Below the pieces are notes generated by a model that made no database searches, was not told the DNA's origin, and saw only the letters and a list, made by a program, of their open reading frames with translations. Both the position numbers and the translations under genes were made by a program. A stretch of 64,000 bases of DNA, from the NCBI GenBank assembly GCA_964551205.1, contig CAZKCQ010000001.1:5746-69745 (forward strand). The letters are read 5' to 3'. Each line of letters opens with the position of its first letter. The stretch's first letter is position 1. Source of the stretch: an uncultured Spirochaetaceae bacterium. Lineage in GTDB: Bacteria > Spirochaetota > Spirochaetia > SZUA-6 > DRHE01. Shown piece after piece: positions 30,173 to 60,395 of this stretch.

Positions 30173-30235
30173 CCCGGATCGGGGGGCGACCCTGGGCTCG
30201 CCTAAAACAATAGGTGCAGGAAAGGAGATGAGGCA

Positions 30236-31459: not shown

Positions 31460-31551
31460 AGATTACCGCCGGGGATGGAGCGCTCGGAAGTCCCTCGATT
31501 TAATACAAGCTCAGTGGACAAACCGTGCGGAGTCGGTCCATAATCCGTCGC

Positions 31552-32821: not shown

Positions 32822-32837
32822 TATCGGCCTCCTTCAG

Positions 32838-33890: not shown

Positions 33891-33914
33891 CTCAGGAAGG
33901 CCCCCGGGAATCAG

Positions 33915-34628: not shown

Positions 34629-34766
34629 TAACGACCCACCTCCAGCCAACGTGGTTGCCCAGAGGATCATTGATACACAATTTCGGCCAAAATCTACCAG
34701 GAGAATGGAGGCATCCTATCTGAGTTGCCCGGATTGCGCAAGAGCGATAGCGACGGCAAACTTCAC

Positions 34767-35681: not shown

Positions 35682-35719
35682 CTCGCTCCCTTCTTTAAGT
35701 ACGACCGGAAATCTCCCGC

Positions 35720-36763: not shown

Positions 36764-36843
36764 CAGTGGGAAGATCGTAAAGCAGTTTTACGTCTTTTTC
36801 AAGCATATGTAGATATTTGCGCCGATTTTTGATCGAAGTTGCT

Positions 36844-36870
36844 TGAACTATTGCCCCGACCGGCTATAAT
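36844..36870 (+). promoter_or_regulatory. Sigma70-like promoter TTGAAC-16 bp-TATAAT ending 6 nt before the ADH ATG (possible leaderless transcript)
   Basis: -35 at 36844-36849 and -10 at 36865-36870. The ATG is at 36877 and no SD is present. Confidence 0.35.
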
Positions 36871-36876
36871 ACACCC

Positions 36877-37923: not shown

Positions 37924-37937
37924 ATCGGAGAAGGAAC

Positions 37938-38609
37938 ATGAGTAGGATCAAGGTAGCTCCATCGATGATGTGCGCCGATTTCCTGAACCTGGAGAAACAG
38001 ATCGAAGTGATGGAAGCAAGGGGAATCGACTATCTGCACATCGACATCATGGACGGTCACTACGTTCCCAACTTCACCCTGGGACCGGATTTCTGCCGCC
38101 GTCTGGCTGCAGCAACCAACATTCCTTTGGATATTCATCTGATGATCGAGAATCCGGACTCCTACATCCCGATCTTTGCCGCCTTTGGGGCTCCGGCGCT
38201 GTACATCCACCCGGAGACCAGCTACCATCCGCTGCGATCCCTGCAGCTGATTCGCAGCTGCGGCGCTCGGCCGGGGATAGCCCTGGATCCTGCCGTACCT
38301 GTGGACTCGAGCCGCCCGCTGCTTCCCTACGTCGATCTGGCCTGCATTATGACCGTGAACTCCGGCTACGCGGGACAGAAACTGATCCCTCATACGATCG
38401 ACAAGGTCAAGGAGCTTACCGCTATCATCGATGCGGAGAGGCTGGAGATCGAGATCGAGGTGGATGGAAACGTCAGCTGGAAGAACATTCCCCTAATGGT
38501 CGAAGCGGGAGCGCGGATCCTCGTGGCTGGAAGCTCTTCCCTGTTCGAGGAAGGAACCGAGCTGGAGGCCACTATCGGACGACTTTACCAGTTGATCGGC
38601 AGGGAATGA
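37938..38609 (+). CDS. Ribulose-phosphate 3-epimerase family protein (AlsE/allulose-6-phosphate-epimerase-like)
   Basis: ATG at 37938 with a GGAGAAGGA RBS. 'APSMMCADFLNLEKQIEVMEARGIDYLHIDIMDGHYVPNFTLGP' is the canonical RPE N-terminal block. Confidence 0.8.
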   Translation: MSRIKVAPSMMCADFLNLEKQIEVMEARGIDYLHIDIMDGHYVPNFTLGPDFCRRLAAATNIPLDIHLMIENPDSYIPIFAAFGAPALYIHPETSYHPLRSLQLIRSCGARPGIALDPAVPVDSSRPLLPYVDLACIMTVNSGYAGQKLIPHTIDKVKELTAIIDAERLEIEIEVDGNVSWKNIPLMVEAGARILVAGSSSLFEEGTELEATIGRLYQLIGRE

Positions 38610-38624
38610 CCAGGACAGATAGAG

Positions 38625-39398
38625 ATGCTCGAACCGGAACGACATGAGCTAATCCTCCGGGTGCTGCGGCAGGGACGTTTTGCCTCGATCTTGGACATCG
38701 TCAATCTGATGCACTGCTCGGAAGCCACGGTACGGCGGGATCTGGCCAAACTGGATGCCACGGGCAAACTCCACCGAGTCCGCGGCGGTGCCGAGCTGAC
38801 AGAGAGAATTGTGGATGACGCAGAGCCGACTGCGCAGCTACCCTTTGAGTACCGCAAAGGGATCCTGTTGGAGACTAAGCGGTTGATCGCCCGCAAGGCC
38901 GCCTCCCTCTGCTCCGAAGAGGAAACCGTGATCATCGACGGCGGCTCCACTACTTTCCAGATGGCCGAGTTCCTTCGGGAAGCCCGGCTGAAGATCATCA
39001 CCAACTCTTTCGCCATCGCTGAAGTTTTGATCAAGAACTCCCAGAATACCGTGATTCTCAACGGCGGGATCGTCTATCCGGATTCGCAGCTCATTCTCGA
39101 TCCGTTTCAGGAGGAGGGGTTCCGCAACTATTCAGCAACCAAGGTCTTCATGGGAGTGTATGGGATCGACGAGCTGGGAGCTACAAACACGGACACGCTT
39201 CTCATCAAAACGGAGCGGGCCATGATCGAGCGGGGTCGAGAGTTGATTATCCTGGCGGATGCGAGCAAGTTCAATCGCCGCGGCAACCTGCTGCTCTGCG
39301 GGTTCGAGAAGATCACTACCATCATCACCGACCGTGGTATCTCACAACCGCAACGGGACATGGTGCAAGCGAACAACGTTGAGCTGATACTGGTTTAG
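38625..39398 (+). CDS. DeoR/GlpR family transcriptional regulator
   Basis: 'RHELILRVLRQGRFASILDIVNLMHCSEATVRRDLAKL' HTH followed by a DeoR C-terminal sugar-binding domain. Confidence 0.85.
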   Translation: MLEPERHELILRVLRQGRFASILDIVNLMHCSEATVRRDLAKLDATGKLHRVRGGAELTERIVDDAEPTAQLPFEYRKGILLETKRLIARKAASLCSEEETVIIDGGSTTFQMAEFLREARLKIITNSFAIAEVLIKNSQNTVILNGGIVYPDSQLILDPFQEEGFRNYSATKVFMGVYGIDELGATNTDTLLIKTERAMIERGRELIILADASKFNRRGNLLLCGFEKITTIITDRGISQPQRDMVQANNVELILV

Positions 39399-39510
39399 TT
39401 CGATGGTTTTTTTGAGAGTATTTGGTCAGAAACCGGCAATGCTGTACCCGGCCGGTGGCATTCCCTTGTTATTCGTCTACCAATAACATGTGCTCTGATC
39501 AGGATTCGGT

Positions 39511-40623
39511 ATGACTTCGAAACAACGCACCCATGCCGCACTGAAACGCCAACCAGTAGACCGGATTCCTGTCTTTATGTGGTTCCACCCAAACACAGAA
39601 CGGAATTTAGCAAGATTGTTGGAAGTGCCAGCTTCTGACGTAAGCGAGGCCATGGGGAACGATATCCTTCAGACATGGGTAAACAATAACTATGCGATGG
39701 AAGGCATCATTCACGAACGGGACGGTGAGTGCCATGTCGATTTCTGGGGAATCACCTGGGAGAAGGAAGGAGCATTCAACCAGCCAGTCAGCTTCCCCCT
39801 TGCCGGATCGACGGAGCACGAGCTGCAGGCATATACGTTTCCGCAGGACAAGATAGACTTCCTCTTACATCTCATGGATCCTGTAATTGAGCGACAAAAG
39901 GAGCTATTCATCGGTTGCGATATCTCTCCCTGCGCCTTCGAGATGTACTGGCGACTGCGTGGACTGGAGGAAGCCCTTTTGGATATCGCGGCTAATCCCA
40001 AACTGGCCAAGTTGATGCTTCTTCGCTGTGTCAACTTTGCGCGTACACTTGCCGAACGGGCTTGTCATGAGTTTCCTTTGGACTGGCTGTGGACCGGTGA
40101 TGATGTGGCCGGTTAAAATGGCATGATTTTCAGCCCCGCTTACTGGCGTGAGCTGATCAAACCCCGATTAGCAGAAATTTTCGCTGTAGGGAAGTCATCG
40201 AACCTCTGGGTGGCATTCCACTGTTGCGGAGCCTTGCGCCCGATCATCCCCGATCTGATAGAAATCGGCTTAGATGTTCTTAATCCTATACAAGCCGGCT
40301 GTCCCGGCATGGATGCCCTTGAGCTGAAGCGTGAATATGGAAATGAGTTGGCGTTTATGGGCGGTTTAGACACGCAAGGTATTATTCCCTTCGGAAGCGA
40401 AAAGGAGGTCAGATGTCATGTTTCCGAACTCTTGGATGTCATGACCTCCGGCGGAGGAGGATACATCCTGGCCGCATCTCACACAATTCCGCCGGAGACA
40501 CCTGAACGCAACCTCTTCGCCATGTACGATGAAACCGGCATAAACCGACAAGAGATCCTCGATCGGGCAGCCGATATTCGACAAAGGAATCGCAGATCCA
40601 CCGGTTCACCTCGCGCCGATTAA
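39511..40623 (+). pseudogene. URO-D/MtaA-like family gene (paralogue 6) interrupted by a single in-frame TAA stop at 40114-40116
   Basis: ORFs 39511-40116 and 40123-40623 are in the same frame: '...WLWTGDDVAG*NGMIFSPAYWRELIKPRL...'. The stop falls in the conserved 'DDxxG-x-xG...SP' block that is intact in the paralogues. Confidence 0.6.
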
Positions 40624-40717
40624 GGAGCTTCTCTCGTACACCTTTGACCCGTCTATGGGTTCCAGACAGAGCCGCACCAGCACGAGGTGAATGCGAAGTT
40701 TTCAGTGAGCCCCTCAC

Positions 40718-41875
40718 CTATGCAATACTGTGCCAACGATGCGTCTTCGCGGATTCGATTATTGCATCGATAGCTTGATTCGCTTTCCAGCCATCATAAA
40801 AATTGGGTTGCATGCTCCTATGGTTCAATATTGCGTCGATCATCTCGAATAATTGAATCACGAATGGCTCGTAAAATCCGGTGCCCATTCCAGCCATTGG
40901 GGATATTGTATTACCATAGGGATGGTCTTCACCGCCAACCAATATTTTGGTGAAACCATTTTGTCCCTTTCTCATACTGGTGGAGCAAAAATGCACTTCG
41001 TTCGGTTGTTCCCAATCAAAGAGTACACTACCACCGGTTCCATAAAGTTCAAACTCGAAATGGTTTTTTCGTCCCTGCGCAACACGGCTAGCTAACATAT
41101 TCCCTTGCGCTCCATTATCGAATTCCAACAACACATTACAAATATCATCAACATCGACTTTTCCGGTTTTTGGGCTGCCTTGGGCAGGAAAGTCTACCAG
41201 CGGTCTTTCCTCTATATGCGTTGATAAGCGACCTGTAACTTCCTTGATTTCCCCGACAAGAAAACGAGCCATATCGATTGCATGGGAGCCTAAATCACCG
41301 AGCACACCGCTTCCAGCGAATTTTTTTTGAAAATGCCAATCCAATGGGATATCACTATCTAGTGCCCAATCCTGTGTAAAAGAAATTCTAAACGACAATA
41401 TTGAGCCAAGAAACCCCTCTTTTACCCAACTCTTCACCAATAACACTGCAGGAGTCTTCCTGTAATTGAAGTTAATACCGTGTACTATACCGGCTTTTCT
41501 TGCGGCCTCATAAAGTTGTTTGGCATCTTCTGCGTTAAGAGCTAATGGTTTTTCACAAAAAATATTTTTATGTTGATTGATAATTTCCAACGCGAGTTCT
41601 TTGTGTAAAAAATTCGGAACTGCTACGACCACCAGATTGATATTTTCATCTTCTACCAGTGTGTGCCAGTCATCGGTCCAGTCATCGATGCCTACCCTCG
41701 AGGCAGCCTTTTGGGCAGAATAGTCGTCTTTGTCTGCGATGAGCTTGAAGGTTACATCTTTCACCTTATCTGCGAAAAATCCCTTTACCATTTGAAATGC
41801 TGTTGCATGCACTCGTCCGATGAAGCCCCCGCCTATGAGGCCGATACACAGTCTGTCCATTAGCACCTCCAGCAA
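40718..41875 (-). CDS. Gfo/Idh/MocA family oxidoreductase (low-GC island)
   Basis: 'LCIGLIGGGFIGRVHA' and 'CEKPLA' motifs. 385 aa. Confidence 0.8.
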   Translation of the reverse strand: MLEVLMDRLCIGLIGGGFIGRVHATAFQMVKGFFADKVKDVTFKLIADKDDYSAQKAASRVGIDDWTDDWHTLVEDENINLVVVAVPNFLHKELALEIINQHKNIFCEKPLALNAEDAKQLYEAARKAGIVHGINFNYRKTPAVLLVKSWVKEGFLGSILSFRISFTQDWALDSDIPLDWHFQKKFAGSGVLGDLGSHAIDMARFLVGEIKEVTGRLSTHIEERPLVDFPAQGSPKTGKVDVDDICNVLLEFDNGAQGNMLASRVAQGRKNHFEFELYGTGGSVLFDWEQPNEVHFCSTSMRKGQNGFTKILVGGEDHPYGNTISPMAGMGTGFYEPFVIQLFEMIDAILNHRSMQPNFYDGWKANQAIDAIIESAKTHRWHSIA

Positions 41876-41956
41876 ATGCGGTGTCCTATTGTGAAGAAAT
41901 CAACAGGTTGAAAGACCACAGAAATCCCCAGTTCGATATCTTCAATTATAGGATCG

Positions 41957-42922
41957 TTATACGAACCAGGGTTTCTCTGCTTTTTCAGAAATAGAAACAT
42001 CTTTTAAAAATTTCATTGCCTTCGACAAACCTTCCATAACGGACATCTGTTGATCTTCATGCTCGATACTTAACACAAAGTCGTATCCAATATTGCGTAA
42101 CATGCTAACGAAGTCTTTCCAAAATCCTGCTCCATGTCCATAACCGACTGTTCTAAAATTCCATGAGCGGTTCAAAGGCTCCTGATAGCTCCTGGTATCC
42201 AGTACTCCGGTTTTTGATTTCATATACTCATCAATCTTCGTATCTTTGGCATGAACATGATAAATACACTCTCCGAGATCTCTAGCCGCTACAACTGGGT
42301 CAATTCCTTGCCAAAACAGATGGCTGGGATCGAGATTTGCCCCTATTATTTCCCCCACAGAATCTCTTAGCTTTAGAAGCTTTTCTGGATTGTAAACCGT
42401 ATCTCCAGGATGCATCTCGAAACAGAGCTTTTTTACACCATGTTTTAAGGCATACTTCGCCATATCTCTCCAAAAAGGTATGACTTTCTTCTCCCACTGC
42501 CAAACTGCGAGATCTGCGTAATAATCGGGCCATGGACAGGTTACCCAATTGGGAACCTTTGCTTCATCTGAATCTCCAGGGCAGCCAGCGAATACTATGA
42601 CCCGTTCTACCCCCATTTTCCCTGCTAGTTGCAAAGTATCCTGTAAGTCTTTAGTGTGAGCGTAGGAAATCCTCTTGTCAGGGTGGAGAGGATTGCCCGA
42701 ACACCCAAATGCACTGATAAATAGTCCTCTCGTTTCTATCTTTTCGAGTGTATCTCTAATTTGTTGTTCATCTTCCAGCAGGGCAGCCGGATCGCAATGA
42801 GTCTTGGGAGCAAAACCTCCGGTGGGTAGTTCAACAGATTCTCCTCCTATGCCTGCTATAATGTCCACAGCCTCGTCCAAACTCCGATCGGCGAACAAAA
42901 CGGAAAATACACCTATTTTCAT
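41957..42922 (-). CDS. Sugar phosphate isomerase/epimerase (xylose-isomerase-like TIM barrel)
   Basis: 321 aa. 'VELPTGG', 'FEMHPGD' and 'HVHAKD' blocks. Confidence 0.7.
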   Translation of the reverse strand: MKIGVFSVLFADRSLDEAVDIIAGIGGESVELPTGGFAPKTHCDPAALLEDEQQIRDTLEKIETRGLFISAFGCSGNPLHPDKRISYAHTKDLQDTLQLAGKMGVERVIVFAGCPGDSDEAKVPNWVTCPWPDYYADLAVWQWEKKVIPFWRDMAKYALKHGVKKLCFEMHPGDTVYNPEKLLKLRDSVGEIIGANLDPSHLFWQGIDPVVAARDLGECIYHVHAKDTKIDEYMKSKTGVLDTRSYQEPLNRSWNFRTVGYGHGAGFWKDFVSMLRNIGYDFVLSIEHEDQQMSVMEGLSKAMKFLKDVSISEKAEKPWFV

Positions 42923-43072
42923 TGCAAGTACTCCTCAATTACTCAACTGTCCAAGTTTATATACCATGGTTGTTGCGCTTCATGTTAACCAGCTATCTAT
43001 CGAAGGTCATTACCTTTGATACACCTGCATCAACGATTGAATTCTTCTCTGAAGGCAGGTCGTTTCTCCGGT

Positions 43073-44416
43073 CTATATTCTATTCTGGAGCACGCGGACT
43101 GCATTTCGCGCCGCACCGATGGCAGCTGCCTCATTCATTGAATTCAACACAACAGGCAACCCCAATACACTTTCTGCGGCTGCTCGGATCAGCGGATTTA
43201 GTGCAAGGCCGTTCCCACTTCCCATGATTCTGATCCGTTCAGATCGTAGTTCAGCGGGCAGCAAATCCCGAAGTGTAGTACAGATACCCGTCGCCAAAGC
43301 TCTGGCAACAGAACCCAGGGAGAAATTGTCCAGACCGATCCCTTCGATGGAGCCGCGAAGTTCTTCATTATTCCTCTCTCCAAGGAAACTTGGACTGATG
43401 GTGAGTCCCTCAGACGAATCGGCTAGTCCCAGTTCGTTCATTGTAATGTATATTCGCTGCAATGGGATCTCGGCCAGGCATAGGGCGCTCATCCATTCCT
43501 GAACGACTGTTGCTAGCCATCGCCATGCAGAACCTCCGGAAAGGATCGCTGACACTGCAAGCAGCCTGTCATCCATGTAGGGGCGATACTCGAAAGTGGG
43601 GTATGCTTTCGGTGTTACCTGTTGCATGTTATTTGACAATACCGCCGATAGCTGAGCCCCTGTTCCTATTGTGAGGAATAGTTCCTTCTCCGGTTCTTGA
43701 AGGGTGGCGAAAATCGAAGCCTGATTGTCCCCAACCGCCGTGATTACCGGAATGCCCGCCGGTATATCAAAGAACTCCGCCCGTTCTCTTAAAAGGTGCC
43801 CGGCGATATGCCCATCGGGTACATTTTTCGGCAACAACTCAACCGGAATCCCGATAGCGGAAGCGGTTTCTTTATCCCACGATGAAGCTTTCAGATCGAA
43901 CAACCCCCAACTTGCAGCATTCGTGGGATCTGTAAGGGGGCGGGACAGACCGCAGAGCTGAGCCACGACAAGATCCTGTATTGTACTGGCGCTTATGGAT
44001 TCCAGGGGCAATTTCTTGAAGTCGGAGAACCAAGCAAGGGTCGCACATCCAAAACCACTACGCAACGATTTCCCTGTACGAGTGTTCAGTGCTTCCAGAA
44101 ATCCTCCCTCAAGACAACGCTTGTCCTGCCACGTAACCAAAGGAGATACAGGAGCGTTGTACCGATCCAGAAGCACCACACCGTGCATCTGGCCGGTAAC
44201 GCCGATCCCACTTATTCTCCTTCGCAAGTCCTGAGGAATTCTTTTGAGTGAATTCCAACATGACTCGAATAAAATGCTAACGTCTTGTTCCGAACGCCCG
44301 GGCGGCGAAGGAATATCGGCTCGATGTAAACGCCCGGCGACAGCGTGAACCTCCCCGTTCCCATCCGTAATAACTGCTGCCGTTTTGCTCGTGCCGATGT
44401 CAATTCCGAGATACAT
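43073..44416 (-). CDS. FGGY family carbohydrate kinase (xylulokinase/sedoheptulokinase-like)
   Basis: 'MYLGIDIGTSKTAAVI' N-terminal actin-fold motif and 'GTGAQLS'/'MGSGNG' C-terminal motifs. Internal ATG at 44416 is preferred over 44479. Confidence 0.7.
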   Translation of the reverse strand: MYLGIDIGTSKTAAVITDGNGEVHAVAGRLHRADIPSPPGRSEQDVSILFESCWNSLKRIPQDLRRRISGIGVTGQMHGVVLLDRYNAPVSPLVTWQDKRCLEGGFLEALNTRTGKSLRSGFGCATLAWFSDFKKLPLESISASTIQDLVVAQLCGLSRPLTDPTNAASWGLFDLKASSWDKETASAIGIPVELLPKNVPDGHIAGHLLRERAEFFDIPAGIPVITAVGDNQASIFATLQEPEKELFLTIGTGAQLSAVLSNNMQQVTPKAYPTFEYRPYMDDRLLAVSAILSGGSAWRWLATVVQEWMSALCLAEIPLQRIYITMNELGLADSSEGLTISPSFLGERNNEELRGSIEGIGLDNFSLGSVARALATGICTTLRDLLPAELRSERIRIMGSGNGLALNPLIRAAAESVLGLPVVLNSMNEAAAIGAARNAVRVLQNRI

Positions 44417-44453
44417 ATCGCTGCTTATATGTTCTGTCATTGACCACGCCATT

Positions 44454-45872
44454 TCAAACCAATATGCAAGTGAGATCAAGCACTTCCGCTAACACTCGAA
44501 GTTCCTGTTGATAGTCACCATACACAATAACCGTGTGCTCCCGTGAGATATTCTCAACAAAGCTTTCAAGATCATCGAACTCCAAGAGAGCGGTAGACTC
44601 GCAGTGGGGCATATTCTTATGGCGGGTTGTTTCGAGTATTTTGCCACCGGTAACAAGGAGCGTCCTGCCATCGAACTTTAACTCGACAACAGTCATCCTT
44701 CGGCTCCCGATAAGATCTCCATCAAGACCGCATCCTCTACCGTCGCGTTTGATCTCATAGGTTCCGCCGAAATCCTTCAGGAGACTCTTTCCCGAGGGAG
44801 TCATTTCGGGGGATACCACTCCCACAAAAGCACAGTGGCCGATTCGCGCTAAATTGTTCCAGCATTTGTCTGGATATATCGCAGGATCCGGCGAAATAGG
44901 ATCGCCGAAATGGTCGGTCAATGCTCCGATATACGATATGGGATACATGTTTGACATCATGCACGGAAGGTCGAGGAAGTAAGAGACGAAAGCCATGCTC
45001 ATCATTGCGCAATAGTCTCCGTCGCAAGAGGCGATATAGCCTTCTTCCCGGAGCAGAACCTGAGCTAAGCAGGGAACGTCCCGACCCCCGTTGATGATCA
45101 GATCTCCATAGCAATTCACTCCGAATCCAAGAGCTTTTTCTTCTTCGAGAATGGACTGTATCGCGATGGTACTCCTAAGTGCCTGTCGTAGCTCGTCGCT
45201 GCGAACCGTACTATTGATGTAGCGTCCTTTTCGTGATTTCCACAGCTCGTCGATTGCCGCTTCGCTCACCTCCGGATATCGTGAGCGGATTTCGGCGATT
45301 GGTCGAACTATGATACGTGTGCCAAGATTTTCCGTTACTAGGTAGCTGGCAGCACTAGCGTTCCAGGGGAAGTTCTGTTCTCCGAACACTACTAGAGAGG
45401 AGTTATTGAGCAAACGCTTCATGCCGAGCGCCCGAAGGTAGGATAGACCTTCTTGACCGTTCGCGAGTATTCGCGCCTCGACGCCAAGCGAGTGTAGGAA
45501 ATCCCGAGCAGACCACCGCCAGAAATCGGGCTCATCGTATTCCATGAGCGGCCAGAATAGCAATGGCAGTCCCCTGTCGATCAGGGGTTGGGGATGCGAG
45601 TTCCATACCTCTGTTGGATAAGCCGGGATACTGACAGCCAACACTGCGTCGATTTCCGGACCCAGATTTTTAATGACCTTTTCCCATTGTTCGGGTGATT
45701 CAATTGGAATCACGTCATTTAATACTCCACAGCCTTGAATCGCTTTCGAGAGGGCCTCCAGGTCGATATTGGGCTTGCCTTTTTTTGCGAGGATGGGTTG
45801 AAGCCGAGCGAGCGGCCGTTTCAAATATTCTTTTGGTTCTATAGCTAAATAACGGTGTGCGTGTTCCTGCAA
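44454..45872 (-). CDS. Hypothetical protein, possibly L-fucose/L-arabinose isomerase-like family (COG2407-like)
   Basis: 472 aa and soluble. The C-terminal third ('MPHCESTALLEFDD...') is reminiscent of the fucose-isomerase C-terminal substrate-binding domain. This is a weak assignment. Confidence 0.35.
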   Translation of the reverse strand: MQEHAHRYLAIEPKEYLKRPLARLQPILAKKGKPNIDLEALSKAIQGCGVLNDVIPIESPEQWEKVIKNLGPEIDAVLAVSIPAYPTEVWNSHPQPLIDRGLPLLFWPLMEYDEPDFWRWSARDFLHSLGVEARILANGQEGLSYLRALGMKRLLNNSSLVVFGEQNFPWNASAASYLVTENLGTRIIVRPIAEIRSRYPEVSEAAIDELWKSRKGRYINSTVRSDELRQALRSTIAIQSILEEEKALGFGVNCYGDLIINGGRDVPCLAQVLLREEGYIASCDGDYCAMMSMAFVSYFLDLPCMMSNMYPISYIGALTDHFGDPISPDPAIYPDKCWNNLARIGHCAFVGVVSPEMTPSGKSLLKDFGGTYEIKRDGRGCGLDGDLIGSRRMTVVELKFDGRTLLVTGGKILETTRHKNMPHCESTALLEFDDLESFVENISREHTVIVYGDYQQELRVLAEVLDLTCILV

Positions 45873-45907
45873 ATTTTTCCTCCGCCGTTTATTTGTATTG
45901 TTTGTCG

Positions 45908-47560
45908 TCAGGTTGTTAGTATGGCGACATCGTACGATTCCATGGAAATCTGGTTTTTCTCTACGTTTTTTCTGCCGTACAATTTCAAAATCATTTCTGC
46001 TCGTTGCGGATCAATTCCATAGTTTCGGAGATTGATCCGTACCTCGTGATTCGAGAAATTCAGGAAAACCGAAATCGCCGATTGGTTCAGGCTCCTGCGA
46101 TACGCCAGGATGTCCGGATCATCTTTCTCGTCGAGTGCAAAATTTCCGTTCTGGAGAATCGCAGACGAGTTTCTCAAGTTGATCAACACCTTGTAATAGC
46201 TTAGCATCGATTCAGTATCACCTTCCTGAGCCAAGACATTAATCCGGGAATGTGGAGATGACAATTTCATCCAAGGCTCTCCATTCGAAAACCCTCCTTT
46301 CGCTTCATCGTTCCACTGCATCGGGCTCCTACTCGTTTCTCTGAGGGCTCTAATATTCCAGTTATTGGCGGAAATTGGATCCCTAAGCTCATGGTAGGTA
46401 AGTTCTATATCGGGCATGCCGATCTCCTCCCCGTAATAGACCATGGGCACTCCCTTGAGGGTTATTGTAAGAGCAGCCAGAATTTTCGCCCTCTTGAGGT
46501 CTTCTGTGTATTCTCCCGTGCCGAACCGCGAGATCGCTCTCCGCACATCATGATTAGAAAAGGTGTTGCAACAGAGGAAGTCGTTTAGTTGTTCGACTTC
46601 GTTAGCAAGGGCGTGCCGGAAGCTATCGGCACCCCATCTTGAGTAGGCTAGTGAGAAATTGAATGCCACCGACATGCCGTTCCTGCATAACTCTAGCCCG
46701 GACTTAGTCTGAATATCCACCTCACCGATCAGCAGGCAGTCAGTACCGTGTCGGTCACAAATAGCTCTCATCTCCTGCATGATGTCGATAGTTTCCGGTT
46801 GACCTTTATCGTATCGATGCTCGTATTGAAGATGCTCCGGAATGAGGCACCTAACGTACTTGCTGCCATGAACGGGATCCAAAGGATCCAGGAAGTCGCG
46901 CGTGTCAATCTTTCTTGGCGGGTTGTCACGAAAATGTGCATCTTTTATATACATATCGATGGTGTCGATGCGAAAACCGTCAATTCCCGTCTTTACCCAG
47001 TACTCAAAGGCATCGAGAACCGCCGCCCGCACTTCCGGCTTACGCCAATTCAGCTCGGCATGTTCTTTGAAAAACAGACCGAGGTAGTACTGGTTTCTCT
47101 CCGGACAATAGTGCCACGCACTGCCACCACTGTAGCTTACCCAGTTGTTGGGGATCTCATCGAACCAATAATACCAGTCTGCCCGTGGGTTGGTTTGTGA
47201 AGAACGAGACTGCTTGAACCACTCACCGTAAATAGAGGTATTTGTCGCCGCCCATTCAAGAAGGATCTTGATGCCTGCTCGATGTGCAGTCTCCACTAGT
47301 TGGTGATACTTTTCTATGGTCCCGAAGAGAGGATTTATCTTCATGAGATTTGCCGGACCGTAGCCGAAGTCATATTCCAAAGGTCCATCGTAGAAAGGAC
47401 ATATCCAGATTCCACCGATTCCAAGATCTTTTAAATATGGAATTTTCTCAATGATACCTTGTAAGTCTCCGAAACCGTCGCCGTTCGAATCTCTGAAGCT
47501 CAAAGGATAGATTTGGTAGAATACTTTCTCCTTCCACCACTTTGAACGTGTTTTACTCAT
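45908..47560 (-). CDS. GH13 alpha-glucosidase / oligo-1,6-glucosidase-like
   Basis: 'VFYQIYPLSFRDSNGDGFGDLQGIIEKIPYLKDLGIGGIWICPFYD' GH13 N-terminal block, 'GFRIDTIDMY' and 'YYGEEIGMPD' conserved regions. Confidence 0.85.
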   Translation of the reverse strand: MSKTRSKWWKEKVFYQIYPLSFRDSNGDGFGDLQGIIEKIPYLKDLGIGGIWICPFYDGPLEYDFGYGPANLMKINPLFGTIEKYHQLVETAHRAGIKILLEWAATNTSIYGEWFKQSRSSQTNPRADWYYWFDEIPNNWVSYSGGSAWHYCPERNQYYLGLFFKEHAELNWRKPEVRAAVLDAFEYWVKTGIDGFRIDTIDMYIKDAHFRDNPPRKIDTRDFLDPLDPVHGSKYVRCLIPEHLQYEHRYDKGQPETIDIMQEMRAICDRHGTDCLLIGEVDIQTKSGLELCRNGMSVAFNFSLAYSRWGADSFRHALANEVEQLNDFLCCNTFSNHDVRRAISRFGTGEYTEDLKRAKILAALTITLKGVPMVYYGEEIGMPDIELTYHELRDPISANNWNIRALRETSRSPMQWNDEAKGGFSNGEPWMKLSSPHSRINVLAQEGDTESMLSYYKVLINLRNSSAILQNGNFALDEKDDPDILAYRRSLNQSAISVFLNFSNHEVRINLRNYGIDPQRAEMILKLYGRKNVEKNQISMESYDVAILTT

Positions 47561-47628
47561 TTCAGTATCTCCTTGGTGTTGTGCATTTTCTGTCGGGGGG
47601 CGTCCCGGCGACTACCACTTCGCGACAG

Positions 47629-48453
47629 TCAACCTTTCAGTGCGCCTTCCGTTACACCCTTGATGAAATATTTCTGGAACGAAAGAAAGAGCACGATAAT
47701 TGGCAATAGGGTCAAGGTGAAACCGGCGAGCATTAGGTTCCACCATTGCAAGTACTGGCCGGAAAGCTGGTATTGGGACAACGGAATCGTAAATCGCTTG
47801 GACGTAAGTAGAAGCGACGGCAAGAGAAAATCATTGAAGATCCACACCGTACCAAGCATGATGACCGTTGCAATGATCGGTTTGAGGAGGGGCAACACAA
47901 TGAAGATGAATATCCTGAAATTGCCTGCCCCATCAATATGCGCCGATTCTTCGAGCTCCAACGGAACTGAGCCCTTGATGAAACCGGTGAGGAGAAATAC
48001 AGGTAGAGACATTCCGAGGGCGATATAGATAATGATCAAGCCTCCCATGCTACCAATTTTTAGTACACCCACAACCTTCATGAGCGGGATCATGATAACA
48101 CTAAAGGGGATCATAAGCCCGGATATAAAGGCAATGTATATGACCTGATTAAAGACACTCTTATGACGAACTATGGCGTAGCTTGCCATTGAGGTGAAAA
48201 GTACTATACCGACCATAGAAAGAGAGACCACCAGGACACTGGTGATAAATGCGTTTACCATATGCGTGGTCTTAACGACCTGTGTGAAATTTTCGAAAGC
48301 CAGATGTCGAGGAAACGAGTAAAATGGTCTGGTCATCTCCTCCATAGACTTAAACGCGTTGATGATCGTCAAAAAAACCGGGAGAAAAAAAACCAGGGCT
48401 ATGATAATCAAGATCGGCGGAAGAACTACAGATGCAACCTTGTTACGCCTCAT
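47629..48453 (-). CDS. Carbohydrate ABC transporter permease (MalG-like)
   Basis: 'AHIDGAGNFRIFIFIVLPLLKPIIATV' EAA motif and six TM helices. Confidence 0.85.
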   Translation of the reverse strand: MRRNKVASVVLPPILIIIALVFFLPVFLTIINAFKSMEEMTRPFYSFPRHLAFENFTQVVKTTHMVNAFITSVLVVSLSMVGIVLFTSMASYAIVRHKSVFNQVIYIAFISGLMIPFSVIMIPLMKVVGVLKIGSMGGLIIIYIALGMSLPVFLLTGFIKGSVPLELEESAHIDGAGNFRIFIFIVLPLLKPIIATVIMLGTVWIFNDFLLPSLLLTSKRFTIPLSQYQLSGQYLQWWNLMLAGFTLTLLPIIVLFLSFQKYFIKGVTEGALKG

Positions 48454-49322
48454 CTCTCCACCGCCCTCTTATTCAGAGATACGATAATGACAAGCGATAC
48501 AAGCATGACGATGAAAAAAAGAACATAGGCTGCTGCGGAAGCCCGTCCAACCTGCGAATTTTTGAAGGCTACCTTGTAAATATAGATCGATAACGTTTCC
48601 GTCACGGTTCCGGGCCCACCTTTGGTCATAGAGAAGATTTGGTCGAATTGCTTGAAGGCGAACACCAGCGTATGCACAAAATTGATGATGAATGCGTGGG
48701 TAATGAGCGGAAGTTTGACCGCGACCAGTCGCCGCCAACTTCCGGCACCGTCGATCGAGGCTGCGGCCAGCAAGTTCGCATCGACACCCAGAAGTGCGGC
48801 GGAGTAGATAAGCATCGCCACACCGATGTTCATCCAACTCGTTGCGATGATTGCCGAAAACAGAGCCATCGACGGACTGAGGAATCGGATGCTCGCCAAG
48901 GAAGTCAACCCCAGTAATTTAAAGATCGCAGGAAAGCCCAGTTTGTAGATGTAGTACCATATGAATCCGATGATGATCGGTGTAAGGATCGCCGGAAGGT
49001 AGACCAGAACCCGGGTAATCCCGTTCACTAACCTGTTCGAAGAAGCATCAATACTAATAGCGATGATGAGAGCAACTGAGTTTATCAGTACTGAGGAGAT
49101 AAGCACGTAAATGACTGTTACCCGCAATGAGTTGAGGAAACGCTCTTCACCGAAGATCGTAATATAGTTCTGGAGTCCGACGAAATGAAGCTTCTCGACG
49201 AAGCTGGAGATGTCGGTAAGCGAAAGATAGAAGCCGAAGAATATCGGAAAGAGAACAAAGATCCCATAGAGGAACAATCCAGGGAACGTGAATAGAAATG
49301 ATTTTCTTGCAGAAATGAGCAT
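48450..49322 (-). CDS. Carbohydrate ABC transporter permease (MalF-like)
   Basis: Internal ATG ('MLISARKSF...') with an AAGGTG SD 5 nt upstream. I could not confirm a start codon at the ORF-track start 49382, and my coordinate reading there may be off by ±1 nt. 'AASIDGAGSWRRLVAVKLPLI' EAA motif. Confidence 0.8.
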   Translation of the reverse strand: MLISARKSFLFTFPGLFLYGIFVLFPIFFGFYLSLTDISSFVEKLHFVGLQNYITIFGEERFLNSLRVTVIYVLISSVLINSVALIIAISIDASSNRLVNGITRVLVYLPAILTPIIIGFIWYYIYKLGFPAIFKLLGLTSLASIRFLSPSMALFSAIIATSWMNIGVAMLIYSAALLGVDANLLAAASIDGAGSWRRLVAVKLPLITHAFIINFVHTLVFAFKQFDQIFSMTKGGPGTVTETLSIYIYKVAFKNSQVGRASAAAYVLFFIVMLVSLVIIVSLNKRAVER

Positions 49323-49385
49323 ATCCGCACCTTGTCGGAAGGAAGATACGCTGCACCGACGGCGATGCAGCGTACATTTCACTTT

Positions 49386-50648
49386 CTATTTACTGTACAC
49401 CTTGTACGCTTCGAGGAGATAGTTCTCCAAGGTTTGATTGGTATCATTCGCTGTGATCATTCCCGCGTTGAACTCCTGCAGTTTCGCACTCCAGTCCGAC
49501 CAAACGTTAGGCATGAACCACATGTGGTTCGGCAACGGATAGAGGGAAACTCCTGCATCTACGTACTTCTGTATGTCCTTTGCTACCGGGTCGAAGTCCG
49601 CATGGGCACCCTTCATAGCCGAGAAGATGTGGGTCACGTCTGTCCATATGTTAACTGCTTCTTCGGTTGTCAGCCATTCGACGAACTTGAGACCCATATC
49701 TTTGTCCTTGTGCTTCGCGTTGACACCGATGGTAGAATCGGCTCCGAGGATCATCACGTTTTTCTTGGCTCCATCGGGGGCCGGAGGAATGAATAAGCCG
49801 AGCTCAGCTTCGTTGTTATAGCTCAGTATCGAACTCACCGCCCAGACGCCCTGAATCACCATGGCTGCTTCGCCAATCGCGACTTTCTGGTTGCCCAATC
49901 CGTAACTCAAGTCATTGACATCCGGGTTGGCGTATTTCAGCAGCTTGGAGTACATCTCCATGGCTTTGGTCCATTCGGGGCCCGTGAAGTGCTTTTTGCC
50001 GTTGATAACGTTCATGTCGAAGTTAGGATCCGGCCCGTAGACAAACGGTGTCGCGATTGTCATCACAGCAATACCAAGTGGCCACTGATCATGACCGGTA
50101 ACCACCAGAGGGGTGACTCCCTTTGCTTTAATCTTGACACAAGCGCTGAACAGCTCGTCCCATGTTTGCGGCACCTGGACACTTGCGTCTTTAAATACCT
50201 TCTTGTTGTAGATAAAACCTTGGGCAGCTAAGTCGATCGGCAGGCTGTAGATTTTACCGTCGAGGCGTTGTCCGTCGAGAATCCCATCTTTCACACGGCT
50301 GAGGAATTTTTGATCAGTAAGATCCATCATGATTCCGGCTTTGGGAAGGATGAACCCGTAATTACCTCCTGGGATCGAGATTACCGCAGGCAAAGTTCCT
50401 GCTGCCATTCGAGCTTTGACAGCCTCATCGTAGTTACCAACACCACTGTAGACTACAGTCACATTCGGGTGCAGTACGTTGAAAGCCTTTGCCCATGCCT
50501 CATAGGTTGCTGTGGCTTCTTGTTTCCACACCAGAACCTCGAGCTCAATTTTAGCTGTTCCTTCTTGGCCGCCACTTGCAAAACCTGCAACGCCAACTGC
50601 CAGAAGGAGAATTAGAACAATTAGTGTGTTTCTACGCATGTTTTTCAT
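49386..50648 (-). CDS. Sugar ABC transporter substrate-binding protein
   Basis: Signal peptide 'MKNMRRNTLIVLILLLAVGVAGFASGG'. 420 aa SBP_bac_1-type. Confidence 0.8.
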   Translation of the reverse strand: MKNMRRNTLIVLILLLAVGVAGFASGGQEGTAKIELEVLVWKQEATATYEAWAKAFNVLHPNVTVVYSGVGNYDEAVKARMAAGTLPAVISIPGGNYGFILPKAGIMMDLTDQKFLSRVKDGILDGQRLDGKIYSLPIDLAAQGFIYNKKVFKDASVQVPQTWDELFSACVKIKAKGVTPLVVTGHDQWPLGIAVMTIATPFVYGPDPNFDMNVINGKKHFTGPEWTKAMEMYSKLLKYANPDVNDLSYGLGNQKVAIGEAAMVIQGVWAVSSILSYNNEAELGLFIPPAPDGAKKNVMILGADSTIGVNAKHKDKDMGLKFVEWLTTEEAVNIWTDVTHIFSAMKGAHADFDPVAKDIQKYVDAGVSLYPLPNHMWFMPNVWSDWSAKLQEFNAGMITANDTNQTLENYLLEAYKVYSK

Positions 50649-50735
50649 TTTCCTCCATTTTTCGGTAGATTTCCCACTTTTTTTCGACTATCTTTCTGTA
50701 AAATTCTTGTCTCTTCTTCCACCTCCTTTCATTTA

Positions 50736-51986
50736 TTAACTTCCGGAACCCTCCAGCAATCGCGGAATAGCGGATGGTTTGTGTAAGATACGCTCTACCA
50801 CGAGTGCGCTTACACCGACGAGTGCTGGATCGTTCGTTGACGAACTCAGCTCGATCTTAAGGTTGTGATACACACGGGGAAGTACATGTCTTTCAACGGT
50901 ATTACGGACCGTCTCAAGAAGTAAGTCGCCAAGTTTGGCCATTTCGTCACCAATCACAATTGTGTTGGGATTGAATGCGTTGATGACGCTCACCAAACCA
51001 AAACCGAGATACCATGCTGCCTTTTTCACCGCTTTGCGAACCAGCTCGTCTCCACCCTTTAAGGCCTCAACTATGGCCGGGAAAGATTGGTCCTTCGCAA
51101 GCATGCTCACTGGGTGATCGATAAGTCCTTCCTTCACTTCTCGTACGAGTGCGATTGAGGAACAGTAATGCTCGAGACAACCGTTGTTCCCGCATTCGCA
51201 TTTGGGCCCAGCAAAGTCAATACTCATATGCCCAATCTCTCCGGCGATCCCCAGGGTTCCCCGCAGAAGCCTGCCGTCGATTACAATTCCCGCTCCGATG
51301 CCCTGGCCAGCAGCCACGTAGATCATCGTTTCGTTTTCCATATGACGAGGGGATAGCCACCATTCGGCAAGGGCACCGGCCTTGGCATCATGCTCAAGGA
51401 ATACTGGGATAGGGAATGAAGACGATAGTTCTTTTTCGATAGAGACCATTTCCCAACCTGGGTATTCTGTCATGAGGGCAATCTTGCCTTCGGACCTTAC
51501 ATATGGACCAGGAATGGCAGCTCCAATTCCGAGAATCGTGAATTGGCGGGATGTGTCCAGCACTTGCGTGACATGGTCGATAATTTTCCGAATCACGGAA
51601 GCGGAGCCCACTGAGATGTCTATTGGCACCCGCTGGACCATGTTTTCTGCACCGAACAAATCGAACAGCCCGACAATGAAATAATTCCTGGTGAGCCGGA
51701 TACCAACTACCTTGTAGGCTTTGGTGTTGAGAGTGATGCCGATAGATCTCCGACCTTTCTGACCATTAATAATTCCTGTTTCAGTGACCAGACCCCAGCT
51801 GATGAGATCGTTGATGATATTTGTTATTGTGGCATTCTTAAGACCGGTCATCTTGGCTAGGTCGGCACGGGAACAAAGTTTCACTCTTCGAAGGAGCCTG
51901 ATTACTAAGGCTCGATTCATTTCCTGAACATCTTCAAGATTCATTCCCTGTTTCTGTCGTTTCGTCACCATTATCCATAAGTCCAA
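50736..51986 (-). CDS. ROK family transcriptional regulator (NagC/XylR-like)
   Basis: N-terminal HTH 'LCSRADLAKMTGLKNATITNIINDL'. ROK signature 'GIGAGIVIDGRLLRGTLGIAGEIGHMSIDFAGPKCECGNNGCLE' contains the Zn-binding CxCGxxGC. The start may be the internal Met at 51971 or 51944. Confidence 0.8.
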   Translation of the reverse strand: MDLWIMVTKRQKQGMNLEDVQEMNRALVIRLLRRVKLCSRADLAKMTGLKNATITNIINDLISWGLVTETGIINGQKGRRSIGITLNTKAYKVVGIRLTRNYFIVGLFDLFGAENMVQRVPIDISVGSASVIRKIIDHVTQVLDTSRQFTILGIGAAIPGPYVRSEGKIALMTEYPGWEMVSIEKELSSSFPIPVFLEHDAKAGALAEWWLSPRHMENETMIYVAAGQGIGAGIVIDGRLLRGTLGIAGEIGHMSIDFAGPKCECGNNGCLEHYCSSIALVREVKEGLIDHPVSMLAKDQSFPAIVEALKGGDELVRKAVKKAAWYLGFGLVSVINAFNPNTIVIGDEMAKLGDLLLETVRNTVERHVLPRVYHNLKIELSSSTNDPALVGVSALVVERILHKPSAIPRLLEGSGS

Positions 51987-52010
51987 TTCAATTTATTAAT
52001 TAATTGAATT
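51985..52010. promoter_or_regulatory. AT-rich inverted repeat AATTCAATT-N8-AATTGAATT at the 5' end of the ROK regulator gene; candidate ROK operator
   Basis: Perfect 9-bp arms seen in sequence. ROK/NagC-type operators are AT-rich palindromes. The element overlaps the 5' end of the ROK ORF or lies immediately upstream if an internal start is used. Confidence 0.35.
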
Positions 52011-52167
52011 AAATTATTTATTTGCATTATTACTTACTTCGTTTTATTTGTCAATACAATTATCAGACCTACAGCAATTCTCGTTTTAGCAGACAACGTC
52101 GATATGGCATGATTGTTGTTCTTTAGGTCATCCATAGTCAGATTGGAGATAGCGCTGGGCAGCGCTC

Positions 52168-52557
52168 TTGCAGCCACCGAGTCGATTAATTGAACACGCC
52201 CGGCAAGAACATGGATATGTAGGGGTGGCCTGGGTTCCAGCGGCGGGAGAAACGGTACTGGAAAGAGCGGGACCCGGTCCCCGCACCCTCTGGCCTTTGG
52301 ACATCGATCTGATCACAACCTCGGTGAGAAAAACCGGCCGGGTGGTGATCGTGGAGGAATCACCCGAACAGGGCGGACTGGGGGCGGAGATCGCTGTTCA
52401 GATCGCCGAACAGATTCCTGATTGTCTGCTCACCCCGGTAACCCAGATCGCCGCACCCAATACTCCGGCTCCGTTTTCACCGATCACGGAGAAGGCCTAT
52501 ATTCCTCAGCCTGAGCGGATCGCTGGAACAATCCAAAGACTCATCGAGGAGTATTGA
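52168..52557 (+). pseudogene. Orphan C-terminal fragment of a pyruvate/acetoin dehydrogenase E1 beta subunit (transketolase C-terminal domain)
   Basis: 'LWPLDIDLITTSVRKTGRVVIVEESPEQGGLGAEIAVQIAE' and 'APNTPAPFSPITEKAYIPQPERIAGTIQRL' match the last ~120 aa of E1-beta proteins. About 200 N-terminal residues are missing. The fragment has host-like GC. Confidence 0.55.
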
Positions 52558-52645
52558 GAAAGGTACGTTCACGGATCCTCGCATAATGGGTACTCCGGGC
52601 TTCTAAGGCAAATCCCGGCTCCGGGTTTTCCAGGGAGGTACGCTT

Positions 52646-53090
52646 ATGTTGAACAAATCACAAATTGAAAGGGCTTTTGAGCAGGGAAAGGGTATCTTCC
52701 GACTTGCTCCGAATTGGGTTCCCCGCAGCTTCTGCATCCCCGGTCGGCGACTGACGCTTCATCCCGACGATCTGTTCGCACTGGGGGGCGAAAGAGGCGG
52801 AATCGGGGAGCGGTGGCTGAGCTCGGTCACGGCCGCCGACAACGGGTCCATGACCGCGGCGCCTACGGGGTGATCGTGATCCAAGGACACGGGCGGCTGG
52901 GTGTGTGGAAGGCCGAACTCCGACCTTGATCCGCTATGGGCAGCTGTCCAATGACGAGCTCTTCGTCGGCGCTCGGGCGGCCGCTCGGGGAATCCGTATC
53001 GAAAACGAGTCGGAAGTGGAGCCGCTGGTGATGTTGAAACACTTCGGACCGGACAATCCCGATCTGCGGGAACCGATCCCGGCGTCCTGA
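52646..53090 (+). pseudogene. Probable frameshifted small cupin-type (sugar isomerase-like) gene remnant
   Basis: Three overlapping ORFs in three frames read consecutively as 'IFRLAPNWVP...HPDDLFALGGERGGIGERW', then 'AYGVIVIQGHGRLGVWKAE', then 'LIRYGQLSNDELFVGARAAARGIRIENES'. Stitched, this gives a cupin-like sequence. Confidence 0.3.
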
Positions 53091-53270
53091 AATCCCAAAT
53101 TCATTATTCACATTATATTTCAAAAACAACCAAAATCGACCATCTCGATATTGTCATGCCGAAATGGGTGAACTATGATGATGGCGGTTCTACATGGGCG
53201 TGATCCTGCGAAATGCCGAGCGCCCGACGGCACGATTGCCGCATGTCGACTCACAGAGGAGGAACTTTCT

Positions 53271-55430: not shown

Positions 55431-55437
55431 GCAGGAA

Positions 55438-56538: not shown

Positions 56539-56562
56539 GGGGATCTATTGCCTGGAATACAA

Positions 56563-58086: not shown

Positions 58087-58119
58087 GTTTCAGGAGAGTA
58101 TCAGAGATAACGGGATCGA

Positions 58120-60354: not shown

Positions 60355-60395
60355 TGCTTTTCTCCGCAAATATATAGCCCAATCACTGTAATATA

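Follow-up and report, generated by a model that had tools for sequence, protein, structure and literature searches.

The DNA analysed here, referred to as the window, is a stretch of 64,000 nucleotides from contig CAZKCQ010000001.1 of an uncultured Spirochaetaceae bacterium. In this genome of a Spirochaetia bacterium of ~60% GC lies a 12.8-kb segment of low GC content (39,432-52,240), hereafter called the island, which carries ten genes (Table 1). Nine are located on the minus strand and code, from right to left, for a ROK-family regulator, the solute-binding protein (SBP) and two permeases of a CUT1-type ABC transporter, a GH13 alpha-glycosidase, a putative aldose-ketose isomerase (FucI-like protein), an FGGY-family sugar kinase, a xylose-isomerase-like TIM-barrel protein and a sugar dehydrogenase of the GFO/IDH/MocA family. 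The tenth, on the plus strand, codes for a URO-D-like protein.

Gene content and composition of the island

The GC content is 0.480 between 39,432 and 52,150, whereas it is 0.605 to the left (26,954-39,431) and 0.599 to the right (52,151-64,000), and sliding GC revealed a trough of 0.42 to 0.52 from ~39.4 to 52.2 kb between flanks of 0.56 to 0.65. The ten island genes have a mean GC content of 0.481 and a mean GC content at third codon positions (GC3) of 0.525 (range, 0.39 to 0.60), compared to 0.597 and 0.744 for the 27 other genes of the window (p = 4e-6, Mann-Whitney test). Tetranucleotide usage of the island correlated with that of the high-GC parts with r values of 0.28 to 0.34, compared to 0.96 to 0.98 for the high-GC parts among themselves, and Karlin delta* was 59 to 62 between the island and the flanks and 23 to 27 among the flanks. 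Thus, the drop in composition relative to both flanks that had been claimed in a preliminary description of this DNA was borne out by sliding GC, GC3, tetranucleotides and Karlin delta*, and every gene named there was confirmed by Pfam. Within the island, the TIM-barrel and GFO/IDH/MocA genes have the lowest GC3 (0.39 to 0.43); the remaining genes have values of 0.51 to 0.60.

The preliminary description had also seen no recognisable integrase, and indeed, no integrase or transposase domain was found by Pfam in the open reading frames (ORFs) of the island or in the rest of the window. The whole 64 kb is free of tRNA genes, no IS200 remnant is present in the window, and the only repeats at the borders are short ones at chance level. 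A plasmid collection yielded neither a DNA match to the island nor a tblastn match to the isomerase and thus no evidence of plasmid carriage. That the island genes are copies of paralogues in the window was ruled out, with identities of at most 28%.

The island is not unique within the window with respect to its low GC content. A second block (10,313-21,291; GC of ~0.52, GC3 of 0.57 to 0.73) contains another sugar cassette, with genes for two CUT1 permeases, a DUF3502 SBP, a LacI regulator, two GFO/MocA proteins, a TIM-barrel protein, PfkB, an inositol-1-P-synthase-like protein and a short-chain dehydrogenase/reductase-type epimerase. In composition, this block is nearer to the island (tetranucleotide r = 0.77, delta* of 25) than to the remaining window.

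Table 1. Features of the island and of its two borders (positions refer to the window)
Feature	Position	Strand	Basis
Left junction: end of DeoR gene, hairpin plus T-run, last bases common to relatives	39,377-39,431	+	DNA comparison
URO-D-like protein, MtaA/CmuA-like, not HemE	39,511-40,623	+	Pfam URO-D; GC 0.52
GFO/IDH/MocA NAD-dependent sugar dehydrogenase, levoglucosan-dehydrogenase-like	40,718-41,875	-	Pfam; GC 0.437, GC3 0.43
Xylose-isomerase-like TIM barrel (PF01261)	41,957-42,922	-	Pfam AP_endonuc_2; GC 0.437, GC3 0.39
FGGY-family sugar (ketose) kinase	43,073-44,479	-	Pfam FGGY_N and FGGY_C
Putative AraA/FucI-fold aldose-ketose isomerase (FucI-like)	44,454-45,872	-	Weak Pfam AraA_central
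GH13 alpha-glycosidase	45,908-47,560	-	Pfam Alpha-amylase, 359 bits
Two CUT1-type permeases	47,629-49,382	-	Pfam BPD_transp_1, twice
SBP	49,386-50,648	-	Pfam SBP_bac_1 and SBP_bac_8
ROK-family regulator (NagC/Mlc-like), head of gene string	50,736-51,986	-	Pfam ROK, 184 bits
AT-rich putative regulatory spacer, right edge of low-GC DNA	51,987-52,242	-	GC climbs from 0.48 to 0.55
E1-beta 3' remnant (aa 231-337 of 338), thiamine-dependent dehydrogenase	52,243-52,557	+	blastx against intact L018 gene; Pfam Transketolase_C (52,168-52,557)
Predicted recombination breakpoint interval	52,552-52,675	.	Block-wise alignment to L018
Decayed remnant of 409-aa gene	52,647-53,090	+	Alignment to L018

Borders of the island and the surrounding locus

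The window comes from metagenomic assemblies and its composition changes abruptly, which would also be seen if assembly or binning had united DNA of two organisms. However, ten independent JGI/Logan contigs from various samples and assemblers match the window at >99.9% identity, with L002 and L005 reaching across the left junction and L001, L003, L004 and L006 to L008 across the right one. Since these ten assemblies together cover both junctions, a chimeric origin of the segment can be given next to no weight.

On the left, the island adjoins a module of genes for a TIM barrel, two zinc-dependent alcohol dehydrogenases (Zn-ADH), ribulose-phosphate epimerase (RPE) and a DeoR regulator, with a terminator-like hairpin (39,377-39,405) 3' of the DeoR gene. 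The module is kept in six relatives (L021 to L026) with 75 to 85% nucleotide identity. Homology to the window ends at 39,431 in L025 (85% nucleotide identity) and at 39,373-39,396 in L021, L023 and L026, and the island is missing downstream of the DeoR gene in L021 to L024 and L026. What follows the module is a sulfatase and an Opp-type transporter in L021 and L022 and a DUF4389 protein and a major facilitator superfamily (MFS) transporter in L026; the remaining 742 nucleotides of L025 have no match to the window. The named homologues of the DeoR protein are from metagenome-assembled genomes (MAGs) of Spirochaetia/Spirochaetales, and the cluster of the 87% identical relative includes a Spirochaetia record.

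The first island gene next to this border, coding for the URO-D-like protein, had been taken for an older gene interrupted by the insertion. It is present as two ORFs (39,511-40,116 and 40,123-40,623) that are in one frame and split by a single TAA codon at 40,114-40,116. However, the T at position 40,114 of the window is a C (CAA, Gln) in all three sister assemblies covering the site (L001, L002 and L005), and the gene is called intact, with 370 amino acids, in L002 and L005. The stop codon would be either a strain-level nonsense variant or a sequencing or assembly error; recoding was rejected because the codon is TAA here but CAA in the sister assemblies. URO-D-like genes with 62 to 69% identity are located directly upstream of the FucI-like gene in L011 and L028 to L030. 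The low GC content, the position inside the lineage-specific segment, this linkage to FucI-like genes elsewhere and the intact sister copies argue that the gene is cargo of the low-GC island and not an older gene split by an insertion. It is not a HemE: Pfam URO-D matched only in the C-terminal part (profile positions 211-341), the context is sugar catabolism, and the best NCBIfam matches, far below the cutoffs, were MtaA/CmuA methyltransferases, next to a weak match to PDB entry 4ay7. At least five such MtaA/CmuA-like, non-HemE paralogues are present in the 64 kb, all in sugar-catabolism neighbourhoods (6,717-7,883, 8,024-9,085, 31,525-32,565, 39,511-40,623 and 55,438-56,538), and the identity of the others to the island copy does not exceed 28%. 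In L011, three URO-D-like genes are arranged in a row beside the FucI-like and FGGY genes.

On the right, the orphan gene fragments noted in the preliminary description are indeed remnants of two genes, E1-beta and a 409-aa gene, that are intact in relatives. In L018 (96% DNA identity), an intact E1-beta gene coding for 338 amino acids is followed by the intact 409-aa gene, whose product has no Pfam family, directly upstream of the GHL6 gene. A gene for E1-alpha and an intact E1-beta gene lie directly upstream of GHL6 in L019 (74% DNA identity) and an iron-dependent alcohol dehydrogenase (Fe-ADH) gene in L017 and L108 (75% DNA identity), and the island is missing upstream of GHL6 in L017, L019 and L108. 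The E1-beta remnant has a high GC content and is 78.7% identical to L018, whereas from 52,676 rightwards, after the drop at 52,275-52,675, the identity is 96 to 97% (GHL6 gene, 96.4%). Of the mismatches in the remnant, 12, 10 and 37 fall on codon positions 1, 2 and 3, respectively; this excess at third positions led us to reject decay in place and points to divergence under purifying selection and, thus, to an origin of the remnant from a functional E1-beta gene of another lineage. The real recombination junction appears to lie in the breakpoint interval of Table 1, in the 5' end of the gene after E1-beta and 0.3 to 0.5 kb rightwards of where the GC content changes, and is invisible in the GC profile; GC troughs taken alone thus put such junctions several hundred bases off. 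The breakpoint suggests that, in the latest step of transfer, DNA was exchanged between related spirochaete lineages in which this neighbourhood was already present, with two possible directions: either the island came together with the E1-beta remnant from a related spirochaete or the L018 lineage is the recombinant. The 409-aa gene has lost 784 bp at 52,846/52,847 (corresponding to 1,698-2,481 of L018) and, in addition, 1 nucleotide near 52,917. The ends of the 784-bp deletion are marked by the imperfect 15-nucleotide direct repeats TCCCTGACCGCCGCG and TCCATGACCGCGGCG, which suggests a repeat-mediated loss.

An insertion into an older locus, as proposed earlier, describes the region only in part, since the locus itself is a patchwork. 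Compared to L108 (a 55-kb contig of a 75% identical relative), 18.7 kb of the window (34,540-53,270) faces a 460-bp spacer between Fe-ADH and GHL6; of this extra DNA, just 12.8 kb is low-GC island, and the rest consists of the DeoR module and the E1-beta and 409-aa remnants. Immediately to the left are remnants of a Zn-ADH gene (3' end, 33,903-34,163) and an Fe-ADH gene (34,169-34,539), both of which are intact in L108. The comparison suggests that the surrounding locus is a hot spot of module turnover.

Further differences between the window and its relatives were seen in this region. The window is without a URO-D-like gene that L108 carries between Zn-ADH/Fe-ADH and the conserved gene that comes next. 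L018 lacks ~980 bp (window 55,472-56,451) and with them the greater part of the URO-D-like gene found at 55,438-56,538, of which an ORF of 36 codons remains. Genes for a glycyl-radical enzyme and its activase (58,120-61,394) have a normal high GC content, are not found in the collinear region of L017 and L108 and appear to be another lineage-specific insertion. A plus-strand ORF at 32,655-34,214 without a Pfam match is probably spurious; the translated comparison with L108 identified a minus-strand gene for 345 amino acids (32,874-33,908) with 70% identity.

Related cassettes and origin of the island

A tblastn screen for cassette neighbours covered 83 loci containing a FucI-like gene; it was used instead of an automated neighbour census, in which spurious antisense ORFs had produced noise in high-GC loci. 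Only one of the 83 loci, L081, has the syntenic string ROK-SBP-permease-permease-GH13-FucI-like-FGGY. The identities are 67% for ROK (which has the same position), 78% for the SBP, 66 and 69% for the permeases, 66 to 67% for GH13, 58% for the FucI-like protein and 28% for FGGY. In L081, an unrelated contig with a GC content of 0.70, the string sits between ilvD/ilvB and aroE-K/aroA and has a GC3 of 0.67 to 0.77, compared to 0.90 to 0.94 in the flanking housekeeping genes. The 840-bp AT-rich spacer between ilvB and ROK contains a pseudogene of an IS200 (Y1_Tnp) transposase with four in-frame stops (L081 3,270-3,690). Judging from this arrangement, the core cassette reached a second high-GC genome in an independent event and forms a low-GC island there, too. 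The L081 cassette is without the TIM-barrel/GFO pair, and its FGGY kinase is of a different lineage.

The closest relatives of the FucI-like (72%) and URO-D-like (69%) proteins are not in L081 but in L028 to L030, which match only these two. FucI-like homologues with 60 to 72% identity are abundant; named ones at 59 to 66% are from Lentisphaeria, Kiritimatiellales, Sedimentisphaerales, Phycisphaerales and KSB1, and the closest cluster (71 to 72%) includes a Spirochaetota MAG protein and is encoded on contigs with a GC content of 0.66, to which its composition is native. An FGGY gene with 41 to 53% identity follows the FucI-like gene in ~20 other loci. The isomerase-kinase pair is thus widespread, a few genomes have the URO-D-like gene next to it, and the loci with a named source belong to Spirochaetota and bacteria of the Planctomycetes-Verrucomicrobia-Chlamydiae (PVC) group. 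In the closest FucI-like loci (L028, 18-4,457), genes for a transaldolase/FSA-family aldolase, a URO-D-like protein, a FucI-like protein and an alpha/beta hydrolase follow one another in this order, all with native high GC content; the first of them may be a clue to the aldolase step that the pathway is lacking. Scans of a genome collection gave no relative of the GHL6 flank protein and one match (31%) to GH13.

The spread of GC3 within the island, the L081 cassette without the TIM-barrel/GFO pair and the proximity of L028 to L030 for the FucI-like and URO-D-like proteins together point to three or more modules, each with a history of its own. The first would comprise ROK, the CUT1 importer and GH13, which recur in this order in the low-GC island of the unrelated high-GC genome; the second, the AraA/FucI-fold isomerase and the FGGY kinase plus the URO-D-like protein of the opposite strand; and the third, the levoglucosan-dehydrogenase-like NAD oxidoreductase and the TIM-barrel enzyme, the piece with the lowest GC content. 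The preliminary description can instead be read as a single-step insertion of one intact block, straight from a distant lower-GC donor, that split an older URO-D gene and the genes on the right side. The clear GC trough with its fairly sharp edges, the gene fragments at the right edge and the nine co-oriented, tightly spaced genes are in line with such an event, but a GC3 range of 0.39 to 0.60 is not, and neither is the finding that L081 is close from ROK to GH13 (66 to 78%) but not for FGGY and has no TIM or GFO gene and that L028 to L030 match only the FucI-like and URO-D-like proteins. Moreover, the left border claimed for it is largely refuted by the complete, low-GC URO-D-like gene with its single-nucleotide stop, and the adjacent E1-beta remnant is high in GC and itself foreign relative to L018. 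We consider a one-block import unlikely.

If, on the other hand, the locus were ancestral and vertically inherited, its low GC content would be due to a local mutational or selective bias, and the relatives would have lost or rearranged it. The lack of mobility genes, repeats and a tRNA gene, the Spirochaetota protein in the nearest FucI-like cluster, the strong rearrangement of the region in all relatives and the second low-GC sugar block in the window would be compatible with this. However, the sugar genes in the flanks (GHL6, FGGY at 56,563-58,086, the Zn-ADHs and the other URO-D-like genes) have an ordinary GC3 of 0.72 to 0.81, and the tetranucleotide correlation of the island with the flanks is only 0.3. 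In addition, the cassette is also low in GC relative to a different host in L081, where it is found by an IS200 remnant and between housekeeping genes, and relatives have an intact copy of the gene that is cut off right at the GC border. These findings make vertical inheritance improbable.

Our preferred explanation, with a probability of roughly 70%, is that the segment from 39,432 to ~52,240 is a horizontally acquired, mosaic catabolic island of at least three modules that has no mobility genes of its own and was integrated by recombination. Entry would have occurred by recombination and not by a site-specific integrase, with the low-GC DNA ending inside a former E1-beta gene, at a site where sugar-catabolism modules may be repeatedly gained, lost and eroded. 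Horizontal acquisition as such, which had been proposed before, is supported by the composition, the lack of the island at the corresponding positions in all examinable relatives, the truncated genes and L081; the import as one block was not supported. Several findings weigh against our explanation. The lower-GC donor envisaged earlier was not found, nor was any other donor, and no genome of matching composition carries the whole island. The nearest isomerase and URO-D-like homologues are encoded on high-GC contigs (0.66) of the host's own phylum, so that the best-hit taxonomy suggested as a check revealed no difference from the host for these two proteins. The window has no mobility genes, flanking repeats or tRNA gene. 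No strain without the island at exactly this site was recovered, and the L018 contig stops 1.5 kb to the left of E1-beta, short of the full site. The jump in divergence at 52.6 kb could equally mean that L018 is the recombinant. Finally, the island proteins missed all NCBIfam equivalog cutoffs, and scans for promoters (17, with 16.4 expected) and terminators (14, with 13.6 expected) were at chance overall.

Predicted sugar route and comparison with known systems

The importer has the hallmarks of a CUT1 system, a family-1 SBP and two MalF/MalG-type permeases, with likeness to the UgpA/UgpE, MalF/MalG and GlcT/GlcU-like models of NCBIfam. No ABC_tran ATPase gene of the MsmK/MalK type is present in 39.4-52.2 kb; in CUT1 systems, a shared ATPase from another locus is common. 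Closest to the SBP are sugar binders of the PDB 4zs9, 4zza and 2i58 type (~110 bits), which bind alpha-1,6-linked oligosaccharides and raffinose. The regulator has a ROK domain (residues 94-397), a weak MarR_2 helix-turn-helix match (residues 26-69) and full-length alignments with the NagC and Mlc models, below the NCBIfam cutoffs. The best promoter-like site of the region (TTGACA-17-AATAAT, 52,054-52,026, 11 of 12 matches) is located in the spacer upstream of ROK. A palindromic 14-mer, AATTAATTAATAAA, is found just upstream of ROK in the window (51,990-52,010, minus strand) and in L081 (~3,875-3,890); it may serve as an operator or may just be part of an AT-rich promoter. This AT-rich 14-mer is all that the two ROK upstream regions have in common, and there is no convincing overall homology between them.

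The nine minus-strand genes had been described as one probable operon. Their common orientation was confirmed, and the spacing of -26 to +87 nucleotides from ROK to FGGY, followed by 150 nucleotides between FGGY and the TIM-barrel gene and 81 nucleotides thereafter, would fit a single operon with a tail that may be separate. Since the promoter and terminator scans were at chance level, it is the gene spacing that speaks for a single operon.

The GH13 protein is nearest to PDB entries 6aav and 3wy1 (~336 bits), of the Halomonas/Xanthomonas alpha-glucosidase/transglucosidase type. The catalytic residues are present: the nucleophile Asp in region II (GFRID), the acid/base Glu in region III (IGEVD) and the transition-state Asp in region IV (FSNHD). 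However, region I (residues ~100-108) reads EWAATNTS in the window and EWATTNTS in L081 (8,319-9,986), compared to DQV(L/I)SHTS in 6aav/3wy1, and the exchanges of Asp for Glu and His for Asn are thus common to these two copies, which are 67% identical. The region-I His is the residue that touches O6 of the sugar bound in subsite -1. Alpha-glucosidase activity is putative here; the best NCBIfam match reached 417 bits, compared to a cutoff of 900 bits.

For the FucI-like protein there is no NCBIfam family, the Pfam AraA_central match is weak (28.8 bits), and a single PDB sequence match was found (E = 7e-4). An AlphaFold2 model (pLDDT, 88.5; pTM, 0.91) was matched by Foldseek to L-arabinose isomerases (TM, 0.69 to 0.72) and L-fucose isomerases (TM, 0.62 to 0.64) with a probability of 1.0 at 12 to 16% identity, and the protein is thus predicted to have the three-domain AraA/FucI fold. 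The family is tight, with 60 to 72% identity across phyla; clustering at 50% left essentially one full-length representative, and the next relatives have at most 33% identity. Alignment A1 of the family contains invariant E, D and H columns; the active site of this superfamily is marked by Glu and His residues that bind Mn2+. The FGGY gene overlaps the FucI-like gene by 26 nucleotides, and its product is XylB-like, below the NCBIfam cutoff. A literature search on the triad of isomerase, FGGY and URO-D gave nothing relevant, and the same was true for the NCBIfam name "BglA beta-galactosidase".

The GFO/IDH/MocA protein matched NCBIfam NF052479 over its full length with 373 bits, compared to a cutoff of 650 bits, so that the level of an LgdA equivalog is not reached; it also aligned end to end with levoglucosan dehydrogenase (PDB 6a3f, 323 bits). 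The adjacent TIM-barrel protein (321 amino acids, the LgdB2 size class) had weak PDB matches to 2zds and 8ro4 (2-hydroxy-3-keto-glucal hydratase) and is probably a 3-keto-sugar lyase, hydratase or isomerase. LgdA is usually partnered by PF01261 proteins (PMC7676230, PMC10066097), and pairs of 3-keto-sugar dehydrogenases and TIM-barrel proteins catalyse elimination and hydration chemistry (PMC7676230, PMC10066097, PMC10628242). The partner genes in the LgdA pathway are lgdB1 (eliminase), lgdB2/B3 and lgdC (PMC7676230, PMC10066097); the island contains no second GFO/IDH/MocA (LgdC) gene and only this one PF01261 TIM barrel.

From these assignments, a sugar route can be proposed. ROK would repress the promoter in the spacer until an inducer sugar is bound, and the ABC system, with an ATPase encoded elsewhere, would import an alpha-linked glycoside or oligosaccharide, to be cleaved by GH13. 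One of the released sugars would then be isomerised to a ketose and phosphorylated, and the dehydrogenase and the TIM-barrel enzyme would serve a side reaction on a 3-keto-sugar or offer another, non-hydrolytic way of cleavage. The substrate is likely of the alpha-glycoside class. More tentatively, the isomerase, the FGGY kinase and the URO-D-like protein might be the core of an undescribed sugar route in anaerobic Spirochaetota and PVC bacteria, coupled here to a GH13 enzyme without the region-I His; the substrate of such a route, a doubtful proposal as yet, could be an alpha-glycoside of a C6-modified or unusual hexose.

ROK- or LacI-controlled operons of a CUT1 transporter and GH13 for alpha-glucosides (agl, mal and msm types) are present in many bacteria. 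The island resembles them in that a regulator, an SBP, two permeases and an exo-glucosidase-like GH13 enzyme are combined and the ATPase would come from another locus, but differs in the Glu/Asn of GH13 region I and in that the putative operon runs on into the isomerase and FGGY kinase genes. To our knowledge, the known operons for alpha-glucosides include neither an AraA/FucI-fold isomerase nor an FGGY kinase. Isomerase-kinase pairs such as FucI/FucK and AraA/AraB are the entry steps of established L-fucose, L-arabinose and L-rhamnose catabolism, and in the island, too, an AraA/FucI-fold protein is encoded directly before, and overlapping, an FGGY kinase. Unlike in those pathways, the identity is only 12 to 16%, there is no curated full-length family, the island codes for no aldolase or epimerase, and the partners are GH13 and a URO-D-like protein. 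With the levoglucosan pathway, the island shares a full-length LgdA-like enzyme whose gene adjoins that of a PF01261 TIM barrel, close to an ABC transporter and ROK, neighbours of the types reported around lgdA (PMC7676230, PMC10066097, PMC10628242). It is unlike that pathway in the score of 373 compared to 650 bits, in its one, weakly similar TIM barrel and in the lack of LgdC, and the pair is missing from the L081 cassette.

Of the features of a classical integrase/tRNA island, the deviating composition is found here, but an integrase and a tRNA gene with direct repeats are not. The island is more like the catabolic genomic islands without mobility genes that enter variable regions of the chromosome by recombination, with which it has in common the deviating composition, the patchy distribution, the cassette of regulator, transporter and enzymes and the gene remnants at a junction; different from catabolic genomic islands in general are the lack of a tRNA gene, integrase and direct repeats, the mosaic origin and one junction that resembles a homologous exchange between related lineages and not a site-specific insertion. 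Sugar cassettes would thus be shuffled as modules between sediment bacteria without integrases being left behind. The more useful lead is enzymological: a tightly conserved isomerase group that no curated family covers and for which there is no solved structure, the kinase that goes with it, a URO-D-like protein that is not HemE and a GH13 clade with an altered substrate-binding motif, which together make up a concrete candidate operon for substrate discovery. Compared with known systems, this is an ordinary integrase-free catabolic island with a modest novelty that lies in the isomerase/kinase/URO-D-like module and the atypical GH13 clade.

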